A stretch of DNA of 64,000 nt, from NCBI GenBank assembly GCA_944386675.1, contig CALXBY010000003.1, positions 17,689 through 81,688 on the forward strand, in the 5' to 3' direction. Positions within the stretch are counted from its first letter, which is position 1. The number at the start of each line of letters is the position of its first letter. Source of the DNA: an uncultured Clostridia bacterium. Its GTDB lineage: Bacteria > Bacillota > Clostridia > TANB77 > CAG-508. Shown piece by piece: positions 13,940-22,616 of this stretch. Under the pieces are notes generated by a model. That model had not been told where the DNA came from. It made no database searches and saw only the letters and a list, made by a program, of their open reading frames with translations. A program made the translations under genes and the position numbers.

Positions 13940-15418
13940 ATGGAAAATACAAGATTGTATCAAGACATCGCAAAAAGGACTGATGGGGATATTTATGTAG
14001 GTGTTGTTGGTCCTGTGAGAACTGGTAAATCTACTTTTATCAAAAGATTTATGGATTTACTAGTCATTCCAAATATTGATAATGAATACAAAAAAGAAAG
14101 AGCAAAAGATGAACTGCCACAAAGTGCTGGTGGCAGAACTATTATGACAACAGAGCCAAAGTTTGTTCCAAATGAGGCTATTGAAATTACTTTAAATGAT
14201 AATCTAAAATTTAAAACCAGGCTTGTTGATTGTGTTGGTTATTTAGTAGATAATGCAATTGGCTATTTAGAAGATGATATGCCTAGAATGGTTAAAACAC
14301 CTTGGTCTGAAGAAGAAATTCCTTTTGAAACTGCTGCTGAAATTGGAACAAAAAAAGTTATTGAGGAACATTCTACTATAGGTATCTTAGTTACTACTGA
14401 TGGAACAATTACTGACATTCCAAGAGAAGATTATATTAAAGCTGAAGAAAGAGTTGTAAATGAATTAAAAGCTTTAAACAAGCCTTTTATTATTTTACTA
14501 AATTCAAATGACCCTGATTCTGACTATACGAAAGAGCTTGCGGAAAACTTAAGCAAAAAATACAATACTTCTGTTATGCCTCTTAATTGTGAATATCTAA
14601 CCATTGAAGATATTAATACAATGTTTTCTAAAGTATTATATGAATTTCCTGTTGACCAAATTTGTATTAAATTTCCTAGATGGATTGATGGATTAGATAT
14701 ATCACATCCTCTAAAAACAGAATTATATAAAGAAATTAAAGATGCATTTTCTAATGTAAATGTTTTAAAAGAAATCTCAGGTTGTGTAGAAACTATCAAG
14801 CAAACAGAAATCATTTCAAAAACTTCTATAACAGACATTCAACTAGGAACTGGAAAAGTAAATGTTGAAATCACCTTAAAAGAAGAATTATTCTATCAAG
14901 TACTTTCAGAAATTACAGGTGTTACAGTTTCTAATGAAGGTGATTTATTTAGTATCATTTCTGAATTAGCTGATGTGAAAAAGAAATATGATAAAATTGC
15001 CTACGCCTTAGATGAAGTTAATAGAAAAGGTTATGGAATCGTTACACCTTCAATGGATGAATTAATTCTAGAGGAACCAGAAATGGTAAAACAAGGCTCT
15101 AAATTTGGAGTAAAACTAAAAGCAATGGCACCTTCTATTCATCTTATCAAAACAAATGTGGCAACAGAAGTATGCCCAATTGTTGGTTCTGAAAAACAAT
15201 CAGAAGAACTAGTAAATTATCTATTATCCGGATTTGAAAGTGACCCTCAAAAAATCTGGGAATCTAATATCTTTGGAAAGAGTCTACATGAATTGGTAAA
15301 TGAAGGTTTACAAACCAAACTTGCAAAAATGCCAGAAGAAGCTCAAATTAAACTACAAGAAACTTTAGAAAGAATTGTTAATGAAGGCAGTGGTGGACTA
15401 ATTTGCATTATCCTTTAG
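13940..15418 (+). CDS. spoIVA: stage IV sporulation protein A (spore-coat morphogenetic ATPase)
   Basis: 492 aa; GVVGPVRTGKSTF Walker A at N-terminus; length and composition typical of SpoIVA. Confidence 0.9.
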   Translation: MENTRLYQDIAKRTDGDIYVGVVGPVRTGKSTFIKRFMDLLVIPNIDNEYKKERAKDELPQSAGGRTIMTTEPKFVPNEAIEITLNDNLKFKTRLVDCVGYLVDNAIGYLEDDMPRMVKTPWSEEEIPFETAAEIGTKKVIEEHSTIGILVTTDGTITDIPREDYIKAEERVVNELKALNKPFIILLNSNDPDSDYTKELAENLSKKYNTSVMPLNCEYLTIEDINTMFSKVLYEFPVDQICIKFPRWIDGLDISHPLKTELYKEIKDAFSNVNVLKEISGCVETIKQTEIISKTSITDIQLGTGKVNVEITLKEELFYQVLSEITGVTVSNEGDLFSIISELADVKKKYDKIAYALDEVNRKGYGIVTPSMDELILEEPEMVKQGSKFGVKLKAMAPSIHLIKTNVATEVCPIVGSEKQSEELVNYLLSGFESDPQKIWESNIFGKSLHELVNEGLQTKLAKMPEEAQIKLQETLERIVNEGSGGLICIIL

Positions 15419-15423
15419 TCCGT

Positions 15424-15469
15424 TAGGGACGTGCCAAAATAGACATTTTTTGTCCCAAAGGGACACACC
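15424..15469. repeat. degenerate solo copy of family-1 arm (TA + GGGACGTGCCAAAAT...GTCCCAAAGGGACACACC), 5 bp after spoIVA stop
   Basis: first 17 nt and last 13 nt match the family-1 arm ends; internally deleted. Confidence 0.6.
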
Positions 15470-15543
15470 TTATCTCTATAAGTTAGAAAAAGTCAATTGT
15501 ACACATTATTTTTTCTAACTTATATGTAAGGCTACACTATAAA

Positions 15544-15584
15544 ACCAGGACTTAGAAAATAGTTTCTAAATCCTGGTTTTTTTA
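15544..15584. terminator. bidirectional rho-independent terminator between spoIVA and the convergent phosphatase gene
   Basis: ACCAGGACTTAGAAA...TTTCTAAATCCTGGT stem followed by T7. Confidence 0.7.
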
Positions 15585-15592
15585 TGTTTCTT

Positions 15593-16129
15593 TTATTTAG
15601 ATATTTCTAACATAAAATACTCTAAATTTTTCAACATGATATTCTCTGTTTTAATATTATACATTCTCTTTATTGTTCTCATAATACCATTACTTGTACA
15701 AACTAAAATTAGAGAATTATCTGGATAAGTTGCAAAAATCCTTTCAATTGTTTCTCTCACTCTTGCTTCTACTTCTTCATGTCTTTCACCATAAGGTGGT
15801 GTGTAAATTCCTTTCTGAAAATCTTTTCTTAAAGATTGATCTACGTTTTCTTTATTTTTTCCTTCCCAATCTCCAAGACTGATTTCTGTAAATCCATCCT
15901 CTTCAATGAATTCCTGATTTGGAAAGATAGCCTCTAAAGTCTGTTTCGTTCTTTTAAGAGGTGAACAATAAATTGCATCAAAATGATAATTTTTAAACGT
16001 TTTTCTCATTTTTTTAGCCTGATTTCTTCCCTCTTCTGTAATCCCTACATCTATTCTTCCACAAAACCTACCTTCTTCATTCATTTTCGTCTTTGCATGT
16101 CTTAGAAAAATAATTTGTTTCATATGCAC
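15593..16129 (-). CDS. histidine phosphatase (phosphoglycerate-mutase family) protein
   Basis: 178 aa; IIFLRHAKT RHG motif. Confidence 0.8.
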   Translation of the reverse strand: MHMKQIIFLRHAKTKMNEEGRFCGRIDVGITEEGRNQAKKMRKTFKNYHFDAIYCSPLKRTKQTLEAIFPNQEFIEEDGFTEISLGDWEGKNKENVDQSLRKDFQKGIYTPPYGERHEEVEARVRETIERIFATYPDNSLILVCTSNGIMRTIKRMYNIKTENIMLKNLEYFMLEISK

Positions 16130-16145
16130 TCTCCTAATATGTTAT

Positions 16146-16679
16146 TTAAAACTGAAAATTTTTTACCTCACAATTTTTGATACACAATTGTAAACATGCT
16201 CCATTTTGAGGCACTCCATTAAAATAGCAGTTAACAGCTATACTAACACCTCCATGAGTTACCAATAAAATATTCTTATCTTTATACTTCTTTTTTATTT
16301 CATCTAAAAATAAAAATATTCTATTAAAGAAAACACTGATATTTTCAGCTTTTTCATAAGTTACATTTTTCTCGTAATTCCAAAATGCCTGAAAATCAAA
16401 TTCATCTTTAGACATTCCTTCCATTTCTCCGAAATCTCTCTCAGAAATTCTTTCATCAAAGATAATGAAAACGTTTTTCTCTAAATTAATAATTTCAGCT
16501 GTCTGTCTTGCTCTTTTTAAGGGGGAACAGATAATCAAATCAATGTTTTCTTCTTTTAACTTTTCCATTGTTTCTTTTGCCTGTTCTATTCCCTTAGCAT
16601 TTAACTCAATATTTGCTTTTCCTTGTACTTTTCCATACAAGTTCCAGTCTGTTTCTCCATGTCTTGTTACATATAACAT
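16146..16679 (-). CDS. histidine phosphatase (phosphoglycerate-mutase family) protein, second tandem paralogue
   Basis: MLYVTRHGETDWN...LLVTHGG; start moved to internal Met so that it abuts the upstream gene stop (16681) without overlap. Confidence 0.8.
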   Translation of the reverse strand: MLYVTRHGETDWNLYGKVQGKANIELNAKGIEQAKETMEKLKEENIDLIICSPLKRARQTAEIINLEKNVFIIFDERISERDFGEMEGMSKDEFDFQAFWNYEKNVTYEKAENISVFFNRIFLFLDEIKKKYKDKNILLVTHGGVSIAVNCYFNGVPQNGACLQLCIKNCEVKNFQF

Positions 16680-16680
16680 A

Positions 16681-17766
16681 TCAACCTCTCCATACTTGAA
16701 ATCCATTCGCAGAAAATGAACAAATCTGTTTTAATTCTGCACAAATTTCTAATTCATTAATCTCTGCTATTTTTCTGACATACTTTCTTAAATTTTCATC
16801 AGTTTCAGGAAAGCTATGCCGACTAATCGCATCCTCTCCAATGGTAATACTTCCAGAACAAAATTTCTTTTCACCTATTTGTATAGCATTTTTATGATAA
16901 GTGAAATCACTTTTTTCTGGTAGTTCTAATCCAAAACCATGTGGTATATAGTTGTTCTTAGCATTTTCCATTTTCTTCACTATATACACATTTTTTCCCG
17001 AACTTGTGAGCAATGTTGCAAGTCCTTCAGTCTTCTGAACACCAATTAATACTTCATGCACTGTTGGCATACCATAATGAGCCACATTTAAAACCTCTTT
17101 TCCCATTTCAGTCTTCAAAACCCTTTGGCAAAAAGTATAATTTCTTTCAGCATTAAAGGTCTTAAGCATTTCTGCAATTTTATAAAACTTTTCTGCTTTT
17201 TTACCTTCAATATACCTTAGATACCGGCAATCATCAACTCTTCCTGTCTTGATATCTTGGTGATACCAGTTTCCTACTGTCGGATACAGTTGCTCCTTAT
17301 ACTCACATGCTGATGCATGAACGAGCATATAATACCCTTTCTTCATTCCTATGTGATTATCATCATTTTCCAGATGACACAAAGAAATAAAGTGGTTACC
17401 ATTGGTAAAATTCCAGTTATACTTTGATGTATCTGATAAAACCTTCTCACACTTTTTCTTGAATTCACTTACCTGCATATCGAAATTTATCCAATACAAA
17501 GCCGTACCACAAACATTTATTGTAGCATCTACAGGAATGAACGGAATGTCTGAATGTTCCCATTTATACACAGCTCCTGTAAAGAAACCACCTTTCATTC
17601 TTGTAACATTATGTGCAATCCCTAAATCAGACATTGCATAAATATCACATGTTTTCTGTGTTGATGAAAGTTTTGTCGCAACCTTTGAAATTAGCTTTTC
17701 TGTTGTTTCTAATTCCCGAAGCAAAATCTTTTGTGTTCTGTCATTTAATGTTAAATTATAAATCAT
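16681..17766 (-). CDS. divergent RtcB-family (3'-phosphate/5'-OH RNA ligase-like) protein
   Basis: 361 aa; by-eye motif alignment to RtcB: AMSDLGIAHN ~ MPDVHLGKG, PVDATINVCG ~ VGVDIGCG, NFTNGNHFISLC ~ GTLGTGNHFIEIC, MLVHASAC ~ MLHSGSRG, NVAHYG ~ NCHHNY, IPHGFG ~ SHGAGR. Confidence 0.55.
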   Translation of the reverse strand: MIYNLTLNDRTQKILLRELETTEKLISKVATKLSSTQKTCDIYAMSDLGIAHNVTRMKGGFFTGAVYKWEHSDIPFIPVDATINVCGTALYWINFDMQVSEFKKKCEKVLSDTSKYNWNFTNGNHFISLCHLENDDNHIGMKKGYYMLVHASACEYKEQLYPTVGNWYHQDIKTGRVDDCRYLRYIEGKKAEKFYKIAEMLKTFNAERNYTFCQRVLKTEMGKEVLNVAHYGMPTVHEVLIGVQKTEGLATLLTSSGKNVYIVKKMENAKNNYIPHGFGLELPEKSDFTYHKNAIQIGEKKFCSGSITIGEDAISRHSFPETDENLRKYVRKIAEINELEICAELKQICSFSANGFQVWRG

Positions 17767-18035
17767 ATTGTTTCCTCCTTTTTGTCACATTAAATGTTTT
17801 TTGTTACAATTCCTTTACTATAAAGAATCAAGTTTCGCATTTTAAGCATTTATTTTTTTGCTTAATATCTGCCCTGTTTTATTTTATGTTAATCTCAATC
17901 GTTAAACTTTTCAAAATACAGTTTTTCAAAATTGATAAAAAAAATATCAAATTTCATTTTCTTTATGGAGATATTCCCTTCTATCCTTGTACTTTTATGT
18001 AACATAATGGTATAATAAAGATAGATTTTGTTATT

Positions 18036-20339
18036 ATGGAGGAACTTATGGAACAAGATATCTTAAAAACAAATAGAGCAAAATTATTATCTGATTTTAT
18101 TAATGAAATGAAACTATCTATTAAAAAACATAATATAAAAGGAGAATTACCTAGTAAAACATATATCTATACAAGAATTGCAGATTATACACATTATGCA
18201 GAAGTAAGTATCCGAAAATTTTTAACTGGTAGTATTCCAAAAGACATTCCTAGTTTTCTTCAAGGAATTTTAGAATATGCAAAATTGATACAAGTAGATG
18301 ATTCTAAAATTGATGCATTTGCTAAAAATTATTTATCTGCTACGAATACAGTTGTTTTTCAGGATGCAACTATCCAAACAAAAAACAACCTAATTCCTCA
18401 AGACTTAAGCAAAATTATTCGATCTCAAAAACTAACTTCGTTTTTAGATGATTTTATCAATCATCCTATTAATATTGCTTATATTTATGGATATAAATTA
18501 GGTGGAAAATCAAAATCTGTTATGGCATATATGTATGATTTGAGCTTAAAAAATAAATTTGAAAATATGATTTGGATCAATCTAAAAAAGGAAAATCAGC
18601 TATCTACTATTTTAGATACCATTTTGCTTTTCAATTTAGAAAATAAAGCAGAAATCAAACCTGAAGAAAAACAAGATACTTGTCTTGAGTTTATAAAAAG
18701 CACGAAATCTATCCTTATATTAGATTTTGATGATGACATTATCCAAGATGAAACCTTTACATTTGTAAAAAACTTTTCTAAATTTTCAAAAATAGTAATG
18801 ATTACTTCTGTCCCTTATTATCAATATGAAAATCAGTTAGATACCTATTGTTCTAGTTTCTGTATTAATGACTTCATTTCTAAGGAAGAATTAAAAGCTA
18901 TGCTTCATACAACAGAAAATTTTAGAAAAATTATAGATATGCAACCTTCATTAGTTGATACATTATATTCCATTACTGGTGGCATTCCATTTGCCTCTAT
19001 CTATCTAATGAAAAAAATTGTAAGTGTCAATAAACTAGGCGTTTCTTTAGAAAATGCCATTTCTAAATATACAAAAACAAATGAAGATTATAAAATCATG
19101 TCAGAAAAAATCATTCATGATATATGGAAAGAATTAAGTCCAATCGCAAAAAAAATACTCATCATTTGTGCAAATTTTAAATATACCATCTCGATTGAAC
19201 TTGTTTCCTACATATTACATTTAGATATATTATCTAATGAGTGGCAAGAAGCAATTACAGAATGTTATACAAATGATTTATTGATACCTATTATCCAAAA
19301 TCATCCAAGACTTGATATGCACAATTTAATAAGAACACTTGTCTTAGTAAATGCATCTGAAGAAGATTTTAATAAAGAAACATTTTTAAAACAATTAGCA
19401 AAGTTTTATATAGATAAGTCTGCCTATGTGGGTGAATGTTATAATGATATTTCTAAATTAAAATTATTTGATGAGTTAGATGAATGGAACATTACAAAAC
19501 AAGTATTAAATATGTTAGAAGAAAATAAATTATATAAAGAATATATTACGATAATTAGAAATTTAAAATACTACATTTATGTTAGAGGTATGTGGGAAAA
19601 AGGAGAAGATTCTCCACATTTAAAAAGAGCAAAAATGGCAAATATGATTGAAGATAAAAATGAAGAATTAGAAGCTTTGTGTGATTATATTAATATTATG
19701 TCTAAATCACAAAATCAAGAAGAAGCAAAAAAATATTTAGATATTGCTTCAAAAATTATTGAAAAAGAAAAAGATTCTTTAGAAAAACGTATTGTTTGCT
19801 TATTTTATCATGTAAAAGCTCTGTACACTTGTAACTGTTTAAAAAATTACAAAGAAAGTTATGACATATGGATCAATATTAAAGAAAACTATTTTCCTTA
19901 TATTAATGAATATAGAAAATTGGTAACAGATTTATGGATTACCAGATGCTATTTAAAAATTGAAAATGATTTTAAAGCAAAATATGATATGCTAGTTAAT
20001 CGTCTAAAAGATGCAAAAACAGCAAACTTTACTCGTGGTCAAGCAGATTATCATCTTTTACTCATCTCGCTTCTATTAGAACATTTTTCTATCACGCAAG
20101 ATGTAAAATTCTTAAAAATGGCAAATACAAAATTACATACTTGTGAACAATTTTTAAAAGATAATGATTCTTATGATATTCGAAATGAAGCTTTATATTA
20201 TCGTCTAAGAGCTATTTATTATACATACAACAATGATTTTACACAAGCTCAAGAAGTTGCTCAAAAAGCAATTAAAGATTACCAAATAATGAATTGCAAA
20301 AAAGATATTGAGAGTTTACTTGAAATTTTAGATAAATGA
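18036..20339 (+). CDS. STAND-class NTPase: N-terminal XRE-like HTH, NB-ARC-type P-loop module, C-terminal TPR-like helical repeats
   Basis: 767 aa; Walker A GYKLGGKS, Walker B ILILDFDDD; N-term ...LPSKTYIYTRIADYTHYAEVSIRKFLTGS HTH-like; start may be Met5 at 18048 (GGAGG 6 nt upstream). Confidence 0.6.
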   Translation: MEELMEQDILKTNRAKLLSDFINEMKLSIKKHNIKGELPSKTYIYTRIADYTHYAEVSIRKFLTGSIPKDIPSFLQGILEYAKLIQVDDSKIDAFAKNYLSATNTVVFQDATIQTKNNLIPQDLSKIIRSQKLTSFLDDFINHPINIAYIYGYKLGGKSKSVMAYMYDLSLKNKFENMIWINLKKENQLSTILDTILLFNLENKAEIKPEEKQDTCLEFIKSTKSILILDFDDDIIQDETFTFVKNFSKFSKIVMITSVPYYQYENQLDTYCSSFCINDFISKEELKAMLHTTENFRKIIDMQPSLVDTLYSITGGIPFASIYLMKKIVSVNKLGVSLENAISKYTKTNEDYKIMSEKIIHDIWKELSPIAKKILIICANFKYTISIELVSYILHLDILSNEWQEAITECYTNDLLIPIIQNHPRLDMHNLIRTLVLVNASEEDFNKETFLKQLAKFYIDKSAYVGECYNDISKLKLFDELDEWNITKQVLNMLEENKLYKEYITIIRNLKYYIYVRGMWEKGEDSPHLKRAKMANMIEDKNEELEALCDYINIMSKSQNQEEAKKYLDIASKIIEKEKDSLEKRIVCLFYHVKALYTCNCLKNYKESYDIWINIKENYFPYINEYRKLVTDLWITRCYLKIENDFKAKYDMLVNRLKDAKTANFTRGQADYHLLLISLLLEHFSITQDVKFLKMANTKLHTCEQFLKDNDSYDIRNEALYYRLRAIYYTYNNDFTQAQEVAQKAIKDYQIMNCKKDIESLLEILDK

Positions 20340-20409: not shown

Positions 20410-21495
20410 TTAATTGTATGTTTCCACGGGTTCAGCTGGTTCCACTAAGATTTTTATCAGCTGAAGCCTATTTTCAATTGATTCTTCCAAATCTTCATTA
20501 TTAGATCTGGAAATTTGGAGAGCGTCTCCTTTATATTTGGCTAAAATCTTTATTTTATTATTATCATCAAATTTTGCCAAAAATAAATTACCTTTTCGAT
20601 CTCCGATTTCATAATAAGCAATATTACCAACGCTTCCCAAGCACGTAAGTCTGCTTCCAGGAATTGAATATATTATGGGTTTTCCATTTGATGTTGACAG
20701 GGGTAGTTCCAATATTTCTCCAGTGTCCTTGCCTTTTATTGTAGCTATATATACATTTGCTACTTCATCAATCGGCTCAACATTATCCCATTCGCCCAGC
20801 CACTCTATAATGCCACTTTCTTTTGTGACTTCGTAAATTTTCCATTTACCATTGTTCAGTGGTTTATTTACTTGAAATCGGTTGGGAATACTTGACGAAA
20901 TATCCTGCTTATAGCCCTCAAATCTTTTTTGAAATGGCTCAGAAATAACTATTTTCTCATCTCTAAGGTACACATATTTAAAGCCTTTCCCGTCAAGCAT
21001 TTCTATTCCAGCATTCATAACTGGGTGGCCCCACTTCTCAAAAGGTCGAATGCTTCCATCAATTTCAGATATTTTCCCTGAAGAAATCCATAACATTTTA
21101 CTATACATGTTTCTCCTATTCTCTTGGAATAGGAGACCTTCTGTTCCATAAGACTGAAACCAATGGAAACCTGCTAATTCTTGAATTTCAACAACTTCAG
21201 ATTTGTTTTTCCATTTTTTAAACACCTTGTCACCGGTAGAAATTAGCAGATATTCTTCATTTTGTCCAGTTTTTATTACTTCATAATGAAATTTGGGATC
21301 TTTACGAAATGGTGCCAACAACATTTCTTTCTCTTCATCAATTATGGTCTCCTCTAATTCATCAGATTCGTTTTGCCTCTGCACAATAGAAATACCATAT
21401 TCCTTAAGAAGCTCATCTTTGTTATACCAATACCCTCCTAAATTTTCCATCCGCAGATACTTACAAGATTTTCCTTTTACCTTTTTTAATAACAT
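20410..21495 (-). CDS. hypothetical protein, no recognised domain, compositionally GC-shifted relative to neighbours
   Basis: 361 aa from ATG at 21495 (AGAGGA RBS); the track ORF starts at an upstream TTG; local GC visibly higher (CCACGGGTTCAGCTGG, GGGTGGCCCCACTTC). Confidence 0.5.
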   Translation of the reverse strand: MLLKKVKGKSCKYLRMENLGGYWYNKDELLKEYGISIVQRQNESDELEETIIDEEKEMLLAPFRKDPKFHYEVIKTGQNEEYLLISTGDKVFKKWKNKSEVVEIQELAGFHWFQSYGTEGLLFQENRRNMYSKMLWISSGKISEIDGSIRPFEKWGHPVMNAGIEMLDGKGFKYVYLRDEKIVISEPFQKRFEGYKQDISSSIPNRFQVNKPLNNGKWKIYEVTKESGIIEWLGEWDNVEPIDEVANVYIATIKGKDTGEILELPLSTSNGKPIIYSIPGSRLTCLGSVGNIAYYEIGDRKGNLFLAKFDDNNKIKILAKYKGDALQISRSNNEDLEESIENRLQLIKILVEPAEPVETYN

Positions 21496-21596
21496 ACTTT
21501 TTCCTCTCTTTCTCGCCAAATAGGCTTAAAATTGGTTACAGTTCTTAACTTGCGCTAGTATATCATAAAAATAACTCTTTTTCAATCTTATGTAAC

Positions 21597-22616
21597 TTAA
21601 AGATTCTTTCTCCTTAATTGCCCACATGCAGCATCAATATCTGATCCTAGTTCTCTTCGAATGGTCGCAACAATTCCATGGTCATTTAAATAATCTCTAA
21701 ATTTCATGATGTTTTCATTTGAGCTTTTGGTATAAGTTCCATTTTCTATTTTGTTAATTGGAATTAAATTTACATGACAAAGCATTCCTTTTAGTAGTTT
21801 TACTAATCTTTTTGCATCTTCTAAATTATCATTATTTTCTTTTGCTAAGGCATATTCAAAAGAAATTCTTCTATGTGTTTTTTCTATGTAATCCTTGCAT
21901 GCTTGTAATAATTCTTCTATATTATATGTATTATTTACTGGCATCATTTTACTTCTTTGTTCATCTGTTGTTGCATGCAAAGAAATAGACAAAGTACATT
22001 GTATATTTTCTTCTGCCAATTGATATATTTTAGGTACTAAACCACTTGTAGATATACTAATATGTCTAGCACCTATATTTAATCCTTTAGGATGATTGAT
22101 AATTCGAATTGCTTTTACGACATTATCATAATTGTCTAATGGTTCTCCTATTCCCATAAATACAATATTAGAAATTCTAACACCTGAATCTCTTTCTACT
22201 GCCATAATTTGTTCTATAATTTCTCCTGTACTTAAATTTCTGGCAAATGGAATTCCTGTTGAGGCACAAAATTTACATCCCATTTTGCATCCAATTTGTG
22301 AAGAAACACAAATACTATATCCATGATGATATTGCATCAATACAGTTTCAATTGCATTTCCATCTAATACATCAAATAAATATTTTTTTGTTCCGTCTGA
22401 TGCAACTTGTTTTTTTAATATTTTAAATTCTTTAATTTCATAGACTTGTTTTAATTTTTCTCTTAATTCTAATGATAGATTTGTCATATCATCAAAATCA
22501 GATACTCTTGCTTCATAAATCCATTTATAAATTTGTTCTGCTCTAAATGGTTTTTCTCCGATTTCTTTTAGTTCTTCTTTTAATTCATCTAATGCATAGT
22601 CTTTGATATTTTTCAT
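21597..22616 (-). CDS. rlmN: 23S rRNA/tRNA adenine C2-methyltransferase RlmN (radical SAM)
   Basis: 339 aa; CKMGCKFCAS radical-SAM CxxxCxxC, C-terminal ...DIDAACGQL. Confidence 0.9.
   Translation of the reverse strand: MKNIKDYALDELKEELKEIGEKPFRAEQIYKWIYEARVSDFDDMTNLSLELREKLKQVYEIKEFKILKKQVASDGTKKYLFDVLDGNAIETVLMQYHHGYSICVSSQIGCKMGCKFCASTGIPFARNLSTGEIIEQIMAVERDSGVRISNIVFMGIGEPLDNYDNVVKAIRIINHPKGLNIGARHISISTSGLVPKIYQLAEENIQCTLSISLHATTDEQRSKMMPVNNTYNIEELLQACKDYIEKTHRRISFEYALAKENNDNLEDAKRLVKLLKGMLCHVNLIPINKIENGTYTKSSNENIMKFRDYLNDHGIVATIRRELGSDIDAACGQLRRKNL

Follow-up and report, generated by a model that had tools for sequence, protein, structure and literature searches.

A very distant RtcB-superfamily protein and its conserved histidine phosphatase neighbour in uncultured gut Clostridia and Bacilli

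What work is done by a protein that resembles an RNA ligase, falls outside every curated ligase family, and is encoded head to tail with two histidine phosphatases? The question is raised by a 64,000-nucleotide (nt) stretch of DNA, here called the window, from an uncultured Clostridia bacterium (GenBank assembly GCA_944386675.1, contig CALXBY010000003.1, positions 17,689 to 81,688), in which positions 15593-17766 carry three genes on the reverse strand. A first-pass annotation had read them as a divergent RtcB-like RNA ligase followed by two tandem phosphatases that could form an RNA end-healing and sealing cassette; its coordinates, protein sizes and 1-nt junction agree with the open reading frame (ORF) calls and the junction sequence. 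The answer proposed here, to which about even credence is given, is that a catalytically active but very divergent RtcB-like enzyme and one phosphatase form a conserved module acting on phosphate-terminated substrates, accessory in nature and distinct from housekeeping tRNA splicing. The genes concerned are:

16681..17766, reverse strand, RtcB-like gene encoding 361 amino acids (aa), from the ORF call, with an AGGAGG ribosome-binding site (RBS) 7 nt 5' of the ATG
16146..16679, reverse strand, HP1, a 177-aa branch-1 histidine phosphatase (PF00300, E = 7e-45)
15593..16123, reverse strand, HP2, a 176-aa histidine phosphatase (PF00300, E = 9e-40; RBS AGGAGA)

Together, 15593-17766 constitute one three-gene operon in which HP1 is translationally coupled to the RtcB-like gene. 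A single base separates the TGA of the RtcB-like gene (16683-16681) from the HP1 ATG (16679), and the HP1 RBS (GGAGAGG) sits within the 3' end of the RtcB-like coding sequence. HP2 starts 22 nt after HP1 with its own RBS, the likeliest start being the ATG at 16123, with a GTG at 16129 as an alternative that would give 178 aa.

The 361-aa protein is securely placed as a very distant, uncurated branch of the RtcB superfamily. An AlphaFold2 model built from a 34-sequence alignment reached high internal scores (pLDDT 92.5, pTM 0.90), and a Foldseek search of this model against the PDB returned RtcB for all of the top 10 matches (probability 1.00, E = 5e-7 to 2e-5), including human (8BTT, 8ODO, 8ORJ), P. 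horikoshii (1UC2, 4DWQ, 4DWR) and T. thermophilus (2EPG) structures, with query-normalised TM scores of 0.39–0.52, sequence identities of 10–12%, and the next fold at E = 0.3. Profiles were then aligned with hhalign in local mode, using profiles on both sides, a family profile of 101 sequences, and references that comprised E. coli rtcB and its relatives along with P. horikoshii, T. thermophilus and eukaryotic sequences from the PDB alignments. The family profile matched the E. coli-type RtcB profile with E = 5e-5 (probability 67%) and a mixed RtcB profile with E = 1e-3 (probability 19%), and both alignments were collinear with RtcB over nearly the full length; against the single E. coli RtcB sequence the probability was 3.8%, and global mode gave a meaningless alignment. 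A hidden Markov model (HMM) of the family scored E. coli-type RtcBs at 16–18 bits (E ~1e-6, 23-sequence set) and paired the motifs of the two groups (family/RtcB: GNHF/GNHF, lHSsa/LHSGSR, hHYgMp/CHHNY, PHGlG/SHGAGR and lkQi/LRQV). The proposed relatedness to RtcB thus stands on fold and collinear profiles, no profile search having placed the protein in a non-RtcB family, and what does not stand is membership of the curated RtcB family.

By sequence, the family is essentially invisible to curated libraries. The 361-aa protein has no Pfam match at E ≤ 1, the RtcB model PF01139 included, and scans of NCBIfam, PADLOC and PHROG were all blank; PDB sequence searches with either the 361-aa sequence or the family profile A1 gave chance matches only. 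Homologues are numerous (289 at E ≤ 1e-3 in a set of 5.8 billion proteins; 333 cluster representatives from an exhaustive profile search of a 1.84-billion-protein set), yet none of the 120 homologues among the matches listed carries a precomputed Pfam domain and their sole source name is “hypothetical protein”. In the libraries searched, the RtcB fold is represented by PF01139 as the sole family model and by RtcB ligases as the sole matching solved structures. Nothing in these curated libraries describes the RtcB-like family, and nothing in the literature searched (RtcB-like proteins, and RtcB together with histidine phosphatases, TIR, STAND or anti-phage functions) does so either, with the limit that the RNA-repair survey of Burroughs & Aravind 2016, which may mention the family, was not covered.

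In RtcB, the two metal ions are coordinated by one Cys, three His and an Asp, and a fourth His becomes covalently linked to GMP (guanosine monophosphate) as an intermediate (PMC8668186). In human RTCB the metal ligands are C122, H227, H259, H353 and D119, the guanine is contacted by E230 and K504, and the GMP-accepting H428 corresponds to H404 in P. horikoshii and H337 in E. coli (PMC8668186). The equivalent positions of the 361-aa protein were taken from sequence-profile alignments:

AM(S/P)D47, aligned with RtcB MPD
N84, aligned with the RtcB metal-binding Asp
C86, aligned with the RtcB metal-binding Cys
G-N124-H125-F126, aligned with RtcB GNHF
H150 (HASA), aligned with RtcB HSGSR
H230 (HHY/HYGMP), aligned with RtcB CHHNY
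P-H276-G-x-G279, aligned with RtcB HGAGR
Q/P347, aligned with the C-terminal strand Pro (P. horikoshii) or Gln (E. coli) of RtcB

Across 101 family representatives sharing <50% identity with each other, N124, H125, F126, H150, H230, H276, G277 and G279 were 100% invariant, D47, R56, D80 and R316 were conserved in at least 98%, and the C86 position was occupied by Cys (86/101) or Asp (15/101), both of them metal ligands. Counterparts of the Cys and three His metal ligands (C86, H125, H150, H230) are therefore all retained, as is the nucleotidyl-accepting His, whose counterpart H276 lies in the invariant P-H-G-x-G loop; the GNHFI motif that had been picked out by eye is found at residues 123-127. 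Judged from these substitution patterns, the family has what is predicted to be a live metal-dependent active site.

Other parts of the RtcB site have changed. The metal-B Asp (human D119, P. horikoshii D95) is replaced by N84, with Asn in 96% of the family, and the invariant D80, four residues upstream, might substitute for it. The Arg residues of HSGSR and HGAGR (E. coli R189 and R341, which we take to be the phosphate-binding Arg residues of RtcB) are absent, the aligned A153 and L280 being variable across the family and the HGAGR position holding Q, K, V or L; the Glu and Lys contacts to guanine are likewise missing, and the aligned S128 and S352 vary. At 361 aa compared to 408–481 aa, the protein lacks the larger part of the RtcB insert that separates the Cys motif from GNHF, with ~65 residues absent there. 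Because of these losses in the metal-B Asp, Arg and guanine-contacting residues and in the insert, the group is best described as a separate family of the RtcB superfamily, outside PF01139, and neither the choice of nucleotide nor the binding of phosphate ends can be transferred from RtcB; ligase chemistry and an RNA substrate have to be inferred for the same reason. It is very unlikely that the protein is an ordinary, fast-evolving RtcB orthologue performing an RtcBA-type repair job next to coincidental phosphatases. Such an orthologue would account for the identical fold and histidine set, but PF01139 fails even at the permissive threshold, identity to RtcB structures is ~10–12%, the protein is 120 residues shorter than PhRtcB and lacks the Arg and Asp residues, and the 333 representatives form a separate, well-conserved clade with its own R56, D80 and R316. 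Coincidence is further disfavoured by a phosphatase linkage that is far too consistent.

That linkage was explored by scanning 185,579 species genomes, which yielded 80 loci, all from metagenome-assembled genomes (MAGs) of uncultured gut Clostridia or Bacilli, in which ORFs were called and then searched with the window proteins. Of the 78 stand-alone loci that could be tested, 62 have a His_Phos_1 gene immediately 3' of the RtcB-like gene in the same orientation. A second set of 80 metagenome loci held long-form relatives, discussed below, and 76 of 78 testable loci in that set have a His_Phos_1 gene directly downstream, usually with a 4-nt overlap. The pair of an RtcB-like gene and a His_Phos_1 gene is thus firmly established as conserved across ~150 loci of very different architecture, and the linkage is stronger than the first-pass annotation could have foreseen. 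Sixteen stand-alone loci have no adjacent phosphatase, and a search of these for a substitute enzyme found no consistent replacement; they include a disrupted phosphatase gene (L054) and a recombinase insertion (L032). Signs of decay were seen at two loci: the L054 phosphatase gene (L054:9160-10023) opens as expected (FIRHAETVYN) before giving way to unrelated coiled-coil sequence, and the RtcB-like gene at L030:8001-9084 is broken into two ORFs.

The tandem arrangement is far more restricted. HP1 and HP2 occur together only within the close clade of the window (≥73% identity), and among 18 loci (L013-L030) there were 11 with both, two with HP1 only, three with HP2 only, one with neither and one cut by the contig end; outside this clade there is one phosphatase, of either subtype. 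The trio first proposed as a cassette therefore reduces to a conserved unit of one RtcB-like gene and one phosphatase, with the two-phosphatase tandem a feature of the close clade. In three loci the partner is a His_Phos_1-GDPD fusion (L086:4697-6454, L087:3265-5022, L090:3612-4481), combining phosphodiesterase and monoesterase domains. One MAG, CAOKPI01, has two distinct members of the family, each on its own contig (L044 and L087, the latter with a His_Phos_1-GDPD partner), such that paralogous cassettes can coexist. A remote stand-alone member, P0242 (L105:2551-5948), has no recognisable phosphatase and is flanked by a HIT gene upstream and, on the downstream side, by genes for a 245-aa protein and for glycerate kinase. 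Nucleotide phosphoramidates are substrates of HIT hydrolases, and this neighbour, a single case, fits His–NMP (nucleoside monophosphate) chemistry. Clustering of the neighbouring ORFs in the 80 genome loci recovered only His_Phos_1, LysR-type, STAND-type, flanking-synteny and mobile-element families as conserved; rtcA, rtcR, archease and prfH were in no case adjacent in the Pfam-annotated loci, and a canonical RtcB was not found in the window.

Both small proteins are clear members of PF00300 (153.5 bits for HP1 and 136.9 bits for HP2, gathering score 21.7), so that their assignment as histidine phosphatases is upheld by a wide margin. HP1 keeps the full catalytic set of branch-1 histidine phosphatases such as CobC, PspA, GpmB and SixA (RHG / Arg / Glu / HG). 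The RHG motif that had been ascribed to both is not shared by HP2, which reads RHA / R / D and has a Ser at the position of the second catalytic His (motif table, BLASTP). At 28% identity to each other (BLASTP), HP1 and HP2 are old paralogues and not the product of a recent duplication. Compared to the named branch-1 enzymes they are short (176–177 aa) and fall under every NCBIfam equivalog cut-off, including those for CobC, PspA, GpmB and SixA; the best score was for TIGR03162 CobC (HP1 122 bits, HP2 100 bits, cut-off 162.9), with SixA much lower (HP1 27.5 bits, HP2 19 bits, cut-off 74.5). The nucleophile His is present in 76 of the 77 phosphatase partners with a residue at that column, and the partners of the long forms belong to a subtype with RH[A/L/F/C]...HN.

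Many of the 333 representatives are proteins of 760–1060 aa in which the RtcB-like domain is C-terminal (L093-L185, for example L093:8001-10601). Their middle domain has a PLD-like fold (model pLDDT 88) that matches the TrmBL2 C-domain, FAM83, vaccinia F13, PLD3 and NucT (E = 1e-5 to 1e-3), with the His of the HxK motif kept and the Lys absent. N-terminal to this domain is a swappable module, namely a TIR domain, a calcineurin-like phosphoesterase (Metallophos) or an unknown helical domain (6, 17 and 25 occurrences, respectively, over the 80 metagenome loci), and in one protein, P0145, a STAND NTPase replaces both the PLD-like and the N-terminal modules. All four fusion types that were checked by hand have His_Phos_1 directly downstream, and the two-gene unit has no third conserved gene. 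With the exception of TIR, the catalytic domains associated with the family are all phosphoesterases (His_Phos_1, GDPD, Metallophos, PLD-like and HIT), and this company supports the idea of phosphate-end processing.

The long forms also raise a second answer, a tentative one, in which the pair is a conflict module of the anti-phage or toxin-antidote kind: the RtcB-like protein would write or sense phosphate ends during infection, the phosphatase would act as reset or antidote, and the TIR, Metallophos and PLD-like modules or the separate STAND NTPase would serve as effector or sensor. The chemistry would overlap with that of the accessory module proposed above, the role being abortive infection or immunity. 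Fusion to TIR, to a calcineurin-like phosphoesterase and to STAND, with the N-terminal module exchanged from locus to locus, and the PLD-like middle domain are in keeping with it, as are the surroundings of the self-contained two-gene unit, which include IS66, IS21 and IS256 elements, an integrase, a serine recombinase, YoeB/YefM, a ResIII-REase helicase and a Metallophos-STAND protein. An NB-ARC/TPR NTPase adjoins the window operon, and in P0145 an NTPase of this kind is joined to the RtcB-like domain in one protein. On the other side, PADLOC-DB v2.0.0 holds no model that matches the RtcB-like domain or any of the four window proteins (the long forms were matched only via their N-terminal TIR or Metallophos parts), plasmid records (tblastn) and IMG/VR contigs gave no relatives, and a LysR regulator, untypical of defence, accompanies 32 of 80 stand-alone loci. 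The single tblastn match among phages, MT837290.1 (L103:4582-5448, 30% identity), is an unverified and unannotated 7.2-kb ‘Bacteriophage sp.’ contig from human faeces, and being the sole phage-labelled match, with none in IMG/VR, its viral origin is doubtful. Lastly, the window locus shows vertical stability, with spoIVA and rlmN as its flanks in 15 or more related MAG species, which makes the window copy atypical of a defence island. That the RtcB-like protein and phosphatase form the core of an unrecognised family of prokaryotic conflict systems with interchangeable modules, the window holding a split version (STAND gene, enzyme and two phosphatases), is possible, if on the doubtful side of even.

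The NTPase that adjoins the operon is encoded divergently, across a shared intergenic region:

17767..18035, no strand, divergent intergenic region of 269 nt, presumed promoter/operator, from the sequence
18036..20339, forward strand, gene for a 767-aa NB-ARC/STAND-type P-loop NTPase, from a weak NB-ARC match and homologues with PF00931

The NB-ARC match (E = 4.6e-4, 19.9 bits) lies below the 23.5 cut-off and is accompanied by a weak TPR signal; several homologues at 45–50% identity carry precomputed PF00931, and a Walker A (GGKSKS) and an hhhhDFDD Walker B are visible by sequence, along with a ~130-aa N-terminal domain and helical TPR-like repeats. A helix-turn-helix (HTH) at the N-terminus (RLADYTYYSEVSIRKFLTG) was suspected by eye and dropped when Pfam gave no confirmation. 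The P-loop, the NB-ARC-like core and the C-terminal helical repeats are shared with STAND/NB-ARC defence NTPases (Avs-type) and with STAND regulators (MalT/GutR/AfsR-type), from which the window protein differs in matching no PADLOC model and in belonging to a narrow family (120 proteins, none named) that seems dedicated to the RtcB-like locus; it has no PDB relative. Promoter-like matches in the intergenic region were of consensus level and about as many as expected by chance.

Across loci, such a STAND gene lies divergently beside the RtcB-like gene in 25 of the 65 with enough upstream DNA, and a LysR-type regulator gene (HTH_1, E = 3e-18) lies upstream on the same strand in 32 of 80. The two are mutually exclusive, which fits a regulatory role for the NTPase; P0145, in which a STAND NTPase and the RtcB-like domain occur naturally in one polypeptide and which has weak collinear similarity to the window NTPase, makes a physical partnership equally possible.

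Ligand-responsive control by LysR or by a GutR/MalT-like STAND protein is what would be expected if the pair handled a phosphorylated metabolite, for instance a glycerophosphodiester-type compound or the 2',3'-cyclic or 3'-nucleotides released when RNA is turned over, with the RtcB-like protein activating or condensing the phosphate and the phosphatase freeing inorganic phosphate. The exclusive LysR-type regulator, the His_Phos_1-GDPD partners, an alpha/beta-hydrolase gene between the LysR and RtcB-like genes in L007, the HIT and glycerate kinase neighbours in L105, and phosphatases whose best scores, though sub-threshold, are to small-molecule phosphatases of the CobC and PspA type all accord with such a metabolic function, which is nevertheless considered unlikely. 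Metabolism sits uneasily with the TIR, STAND and PLD fusions and with the mobile-element surroundings, no conserved transporter or pathway genes lie nearby, the HTH of the STAND protein found no support in Pfam, and we know of no RtcB-fold enzyme with a small-molecule substrate.

Starting from the observed homology, catalytic-residue conservation, operon structure and gene linkage, we infer by analogy with RtcB which nucleotide is used, what the substrate is, in which direction the reaction runs and what biological role the accessory module has. Two divalent metals would be held by C86, H125, H150 and H230, with N84 in the place of the RtcB Asp; His276 would attack a nucleoside triphosphate to give a covalent enzyme–NMP; and the NMP would then move to the phosphate at the end of the substrate, for which an RNA 3'-phosphate or a 2',3'-cyclic phosphate after opening is the likeliest candidate. 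The end activated in this way would be joined to a hydroxyl. The co-translated phosphatase would strip a terminal phosphomonoester, and may thereby make the hydroxyl acceptor or erase ends not meant for sealing. The cassette would be regulated, by the divergent STAND NTPase in the window and by LysR in other lineages. RNA end healing and sealing by the cassette is on this analogy plausible.

Several observations weigh against this proposal. Beyond the altered residues and the alignment-based equivalences described above, the profile–profile probabilities are modest and no curated RtcB model finds the protein, 16 of the 78 stand-alone loci lack an adjacent phosphatase, HP2 lacks the second catalytic His, and no RNA-specific partner (RtcA, archease, PrfH, RtcR or Ro) lies nearby. 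RtcB-type sealing requires no phosphatase, which leaves the logic of the pair unexplained. The LysR regulators, GDPD fusion and alpha/beta-hydrolase neighbour would also fit small-molecule chemistry, and the STAND gene together with the TIR, PLD-like, Metallophos and STAND fusions points to a conflict or defence role at least as much as to plain repair. The candidate roles are RNA-damage repair; immunity or toxin-antidote action, for which the long-form fusions and mobile contexts speak; and, less likely, metabolism. A different objection is that the RtcB-like domain might be a catalytically dead scaffold or binding domain, leaving the phosphatase as the sole enzyme. The lost RtcB Asp and Arg residues would suit this, as would the C-terminal position of the domain in P0145, STAND proteins commonly having a sensor or repeat region at the C-terminus; the finding that N124, the four His and the G-x-G loop never vary among the 101 sequences, along with the Cys/Asp interchange, argues for an active site instead, and a scaffold is judged highly improbable.

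The remaining features around the operon lie in DNA of low GC content (about 27–32%) from a genome of the spore-forming Clostridia type:

13940-15418, forward strand, spoIVA
15541..15580, reverse strand, intrinsic-terminator hairpin with an 18-bp stem and a 3' arm ending in a U run, from RNA folding
20410-21519, reverse strand, 369-aa ORF between the STAND gene and rlmN
21597-22616, reverse strand, rlmN

The hairpin (-26 kcal/mol, z = -7.95; 0/200 shuffles equally good) closes the operon and faces the end of spoIVA, and was not picked up by a consensus terminator scanner. In the spacer between it and the spoIVA end (15420-15540, viewed on the reverse strand), further inverted repeats occur, TTAGAAAAA...TTTTTCTAA and GTCCCTTTGGGAC, which may be a second terminator, facing spoIVA. 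The 369-aa ORF matched no Pfam, NCBIfam or PADLOC family and was dropped as a component of the system; its presence in just two related loci (L019 and L027) marks it as a variable insertion outside the conserved module.

Set beside known systems, the RtcB-like family shares with RtcB (PF01139; E. coli, P. horikoshii 4DWQ/1UC2, human 8BTT) the fold, the order of motifs, the Cys and three His, and the GMP-accepting His in H-G-x-G. It differs in the absence of the metal-B Asp, the HSGSR/HGAGR Arg and the guanine Glu/Lys, in its own R56, D80 and R316, and in lying almost always beside a histidine phosphatase and not beside RtcA, RtcR, archease or PrfH. The RtcBA/RtcR and RtcB2-PrfH operons are likewise small and inducible, and encode an RtcB-fold enzyme together with another end-processing enzyme and a regulator of their own, either divergent or adjacent; here, the partner is a His_Phos_1 phosphomonoesterase in place of a cyclase or release factor, and the regulator is an NB-ARC/TPR NTPase or LysR in place of the sigma54/CARF activator RtcR. 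The heal-and-seal systems from which the first-pass annotation drew its analogy (T4 Pnkp with Rnl1, bacterial Pnkp-Hen1 and fungal Trl1) also pair an end-remodelling phosphoesterase with a nucleotidyl-transferring sealer. Their ligases are ATP-dependent, proceed through Lys-AMP and join 5'-P to 3'-OH ends, with healing enzymes of the HAD, 2H or Metallophos type plus a kinase. At this locus, by comparison, the candidate for sealing has the RtcB fold, the candidate for healing is a histidine phosphatase, and there is no kinase.

To our knowledge, RtcB is treated as a single family with one chemistry, the GTP-dependent ligation of 3'-P and 5'-OH RNA ends. The locus represents a second, sequence-invisible family with the RtcB fold, in which the His/Cys core is kept and the substrate-binding residues are changed. 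If active, it would extend RtcB-type activation of phosphate ends to a new substrate or nucleotide, and the pair would constitute a new heal-and-seal or write-and-erase set of enzymes. Its members are frequent among Firmicutes of the human and animal gut, where they are labelled hypothetical throughout. Through the fusions to TIR, PLD-like, Metallophos and STAND modules, a connection of RNA-end chemistry with bacterial immunity can be put to a direct test, and the family is of clear interest to specialists in RNA repair and phage defence.

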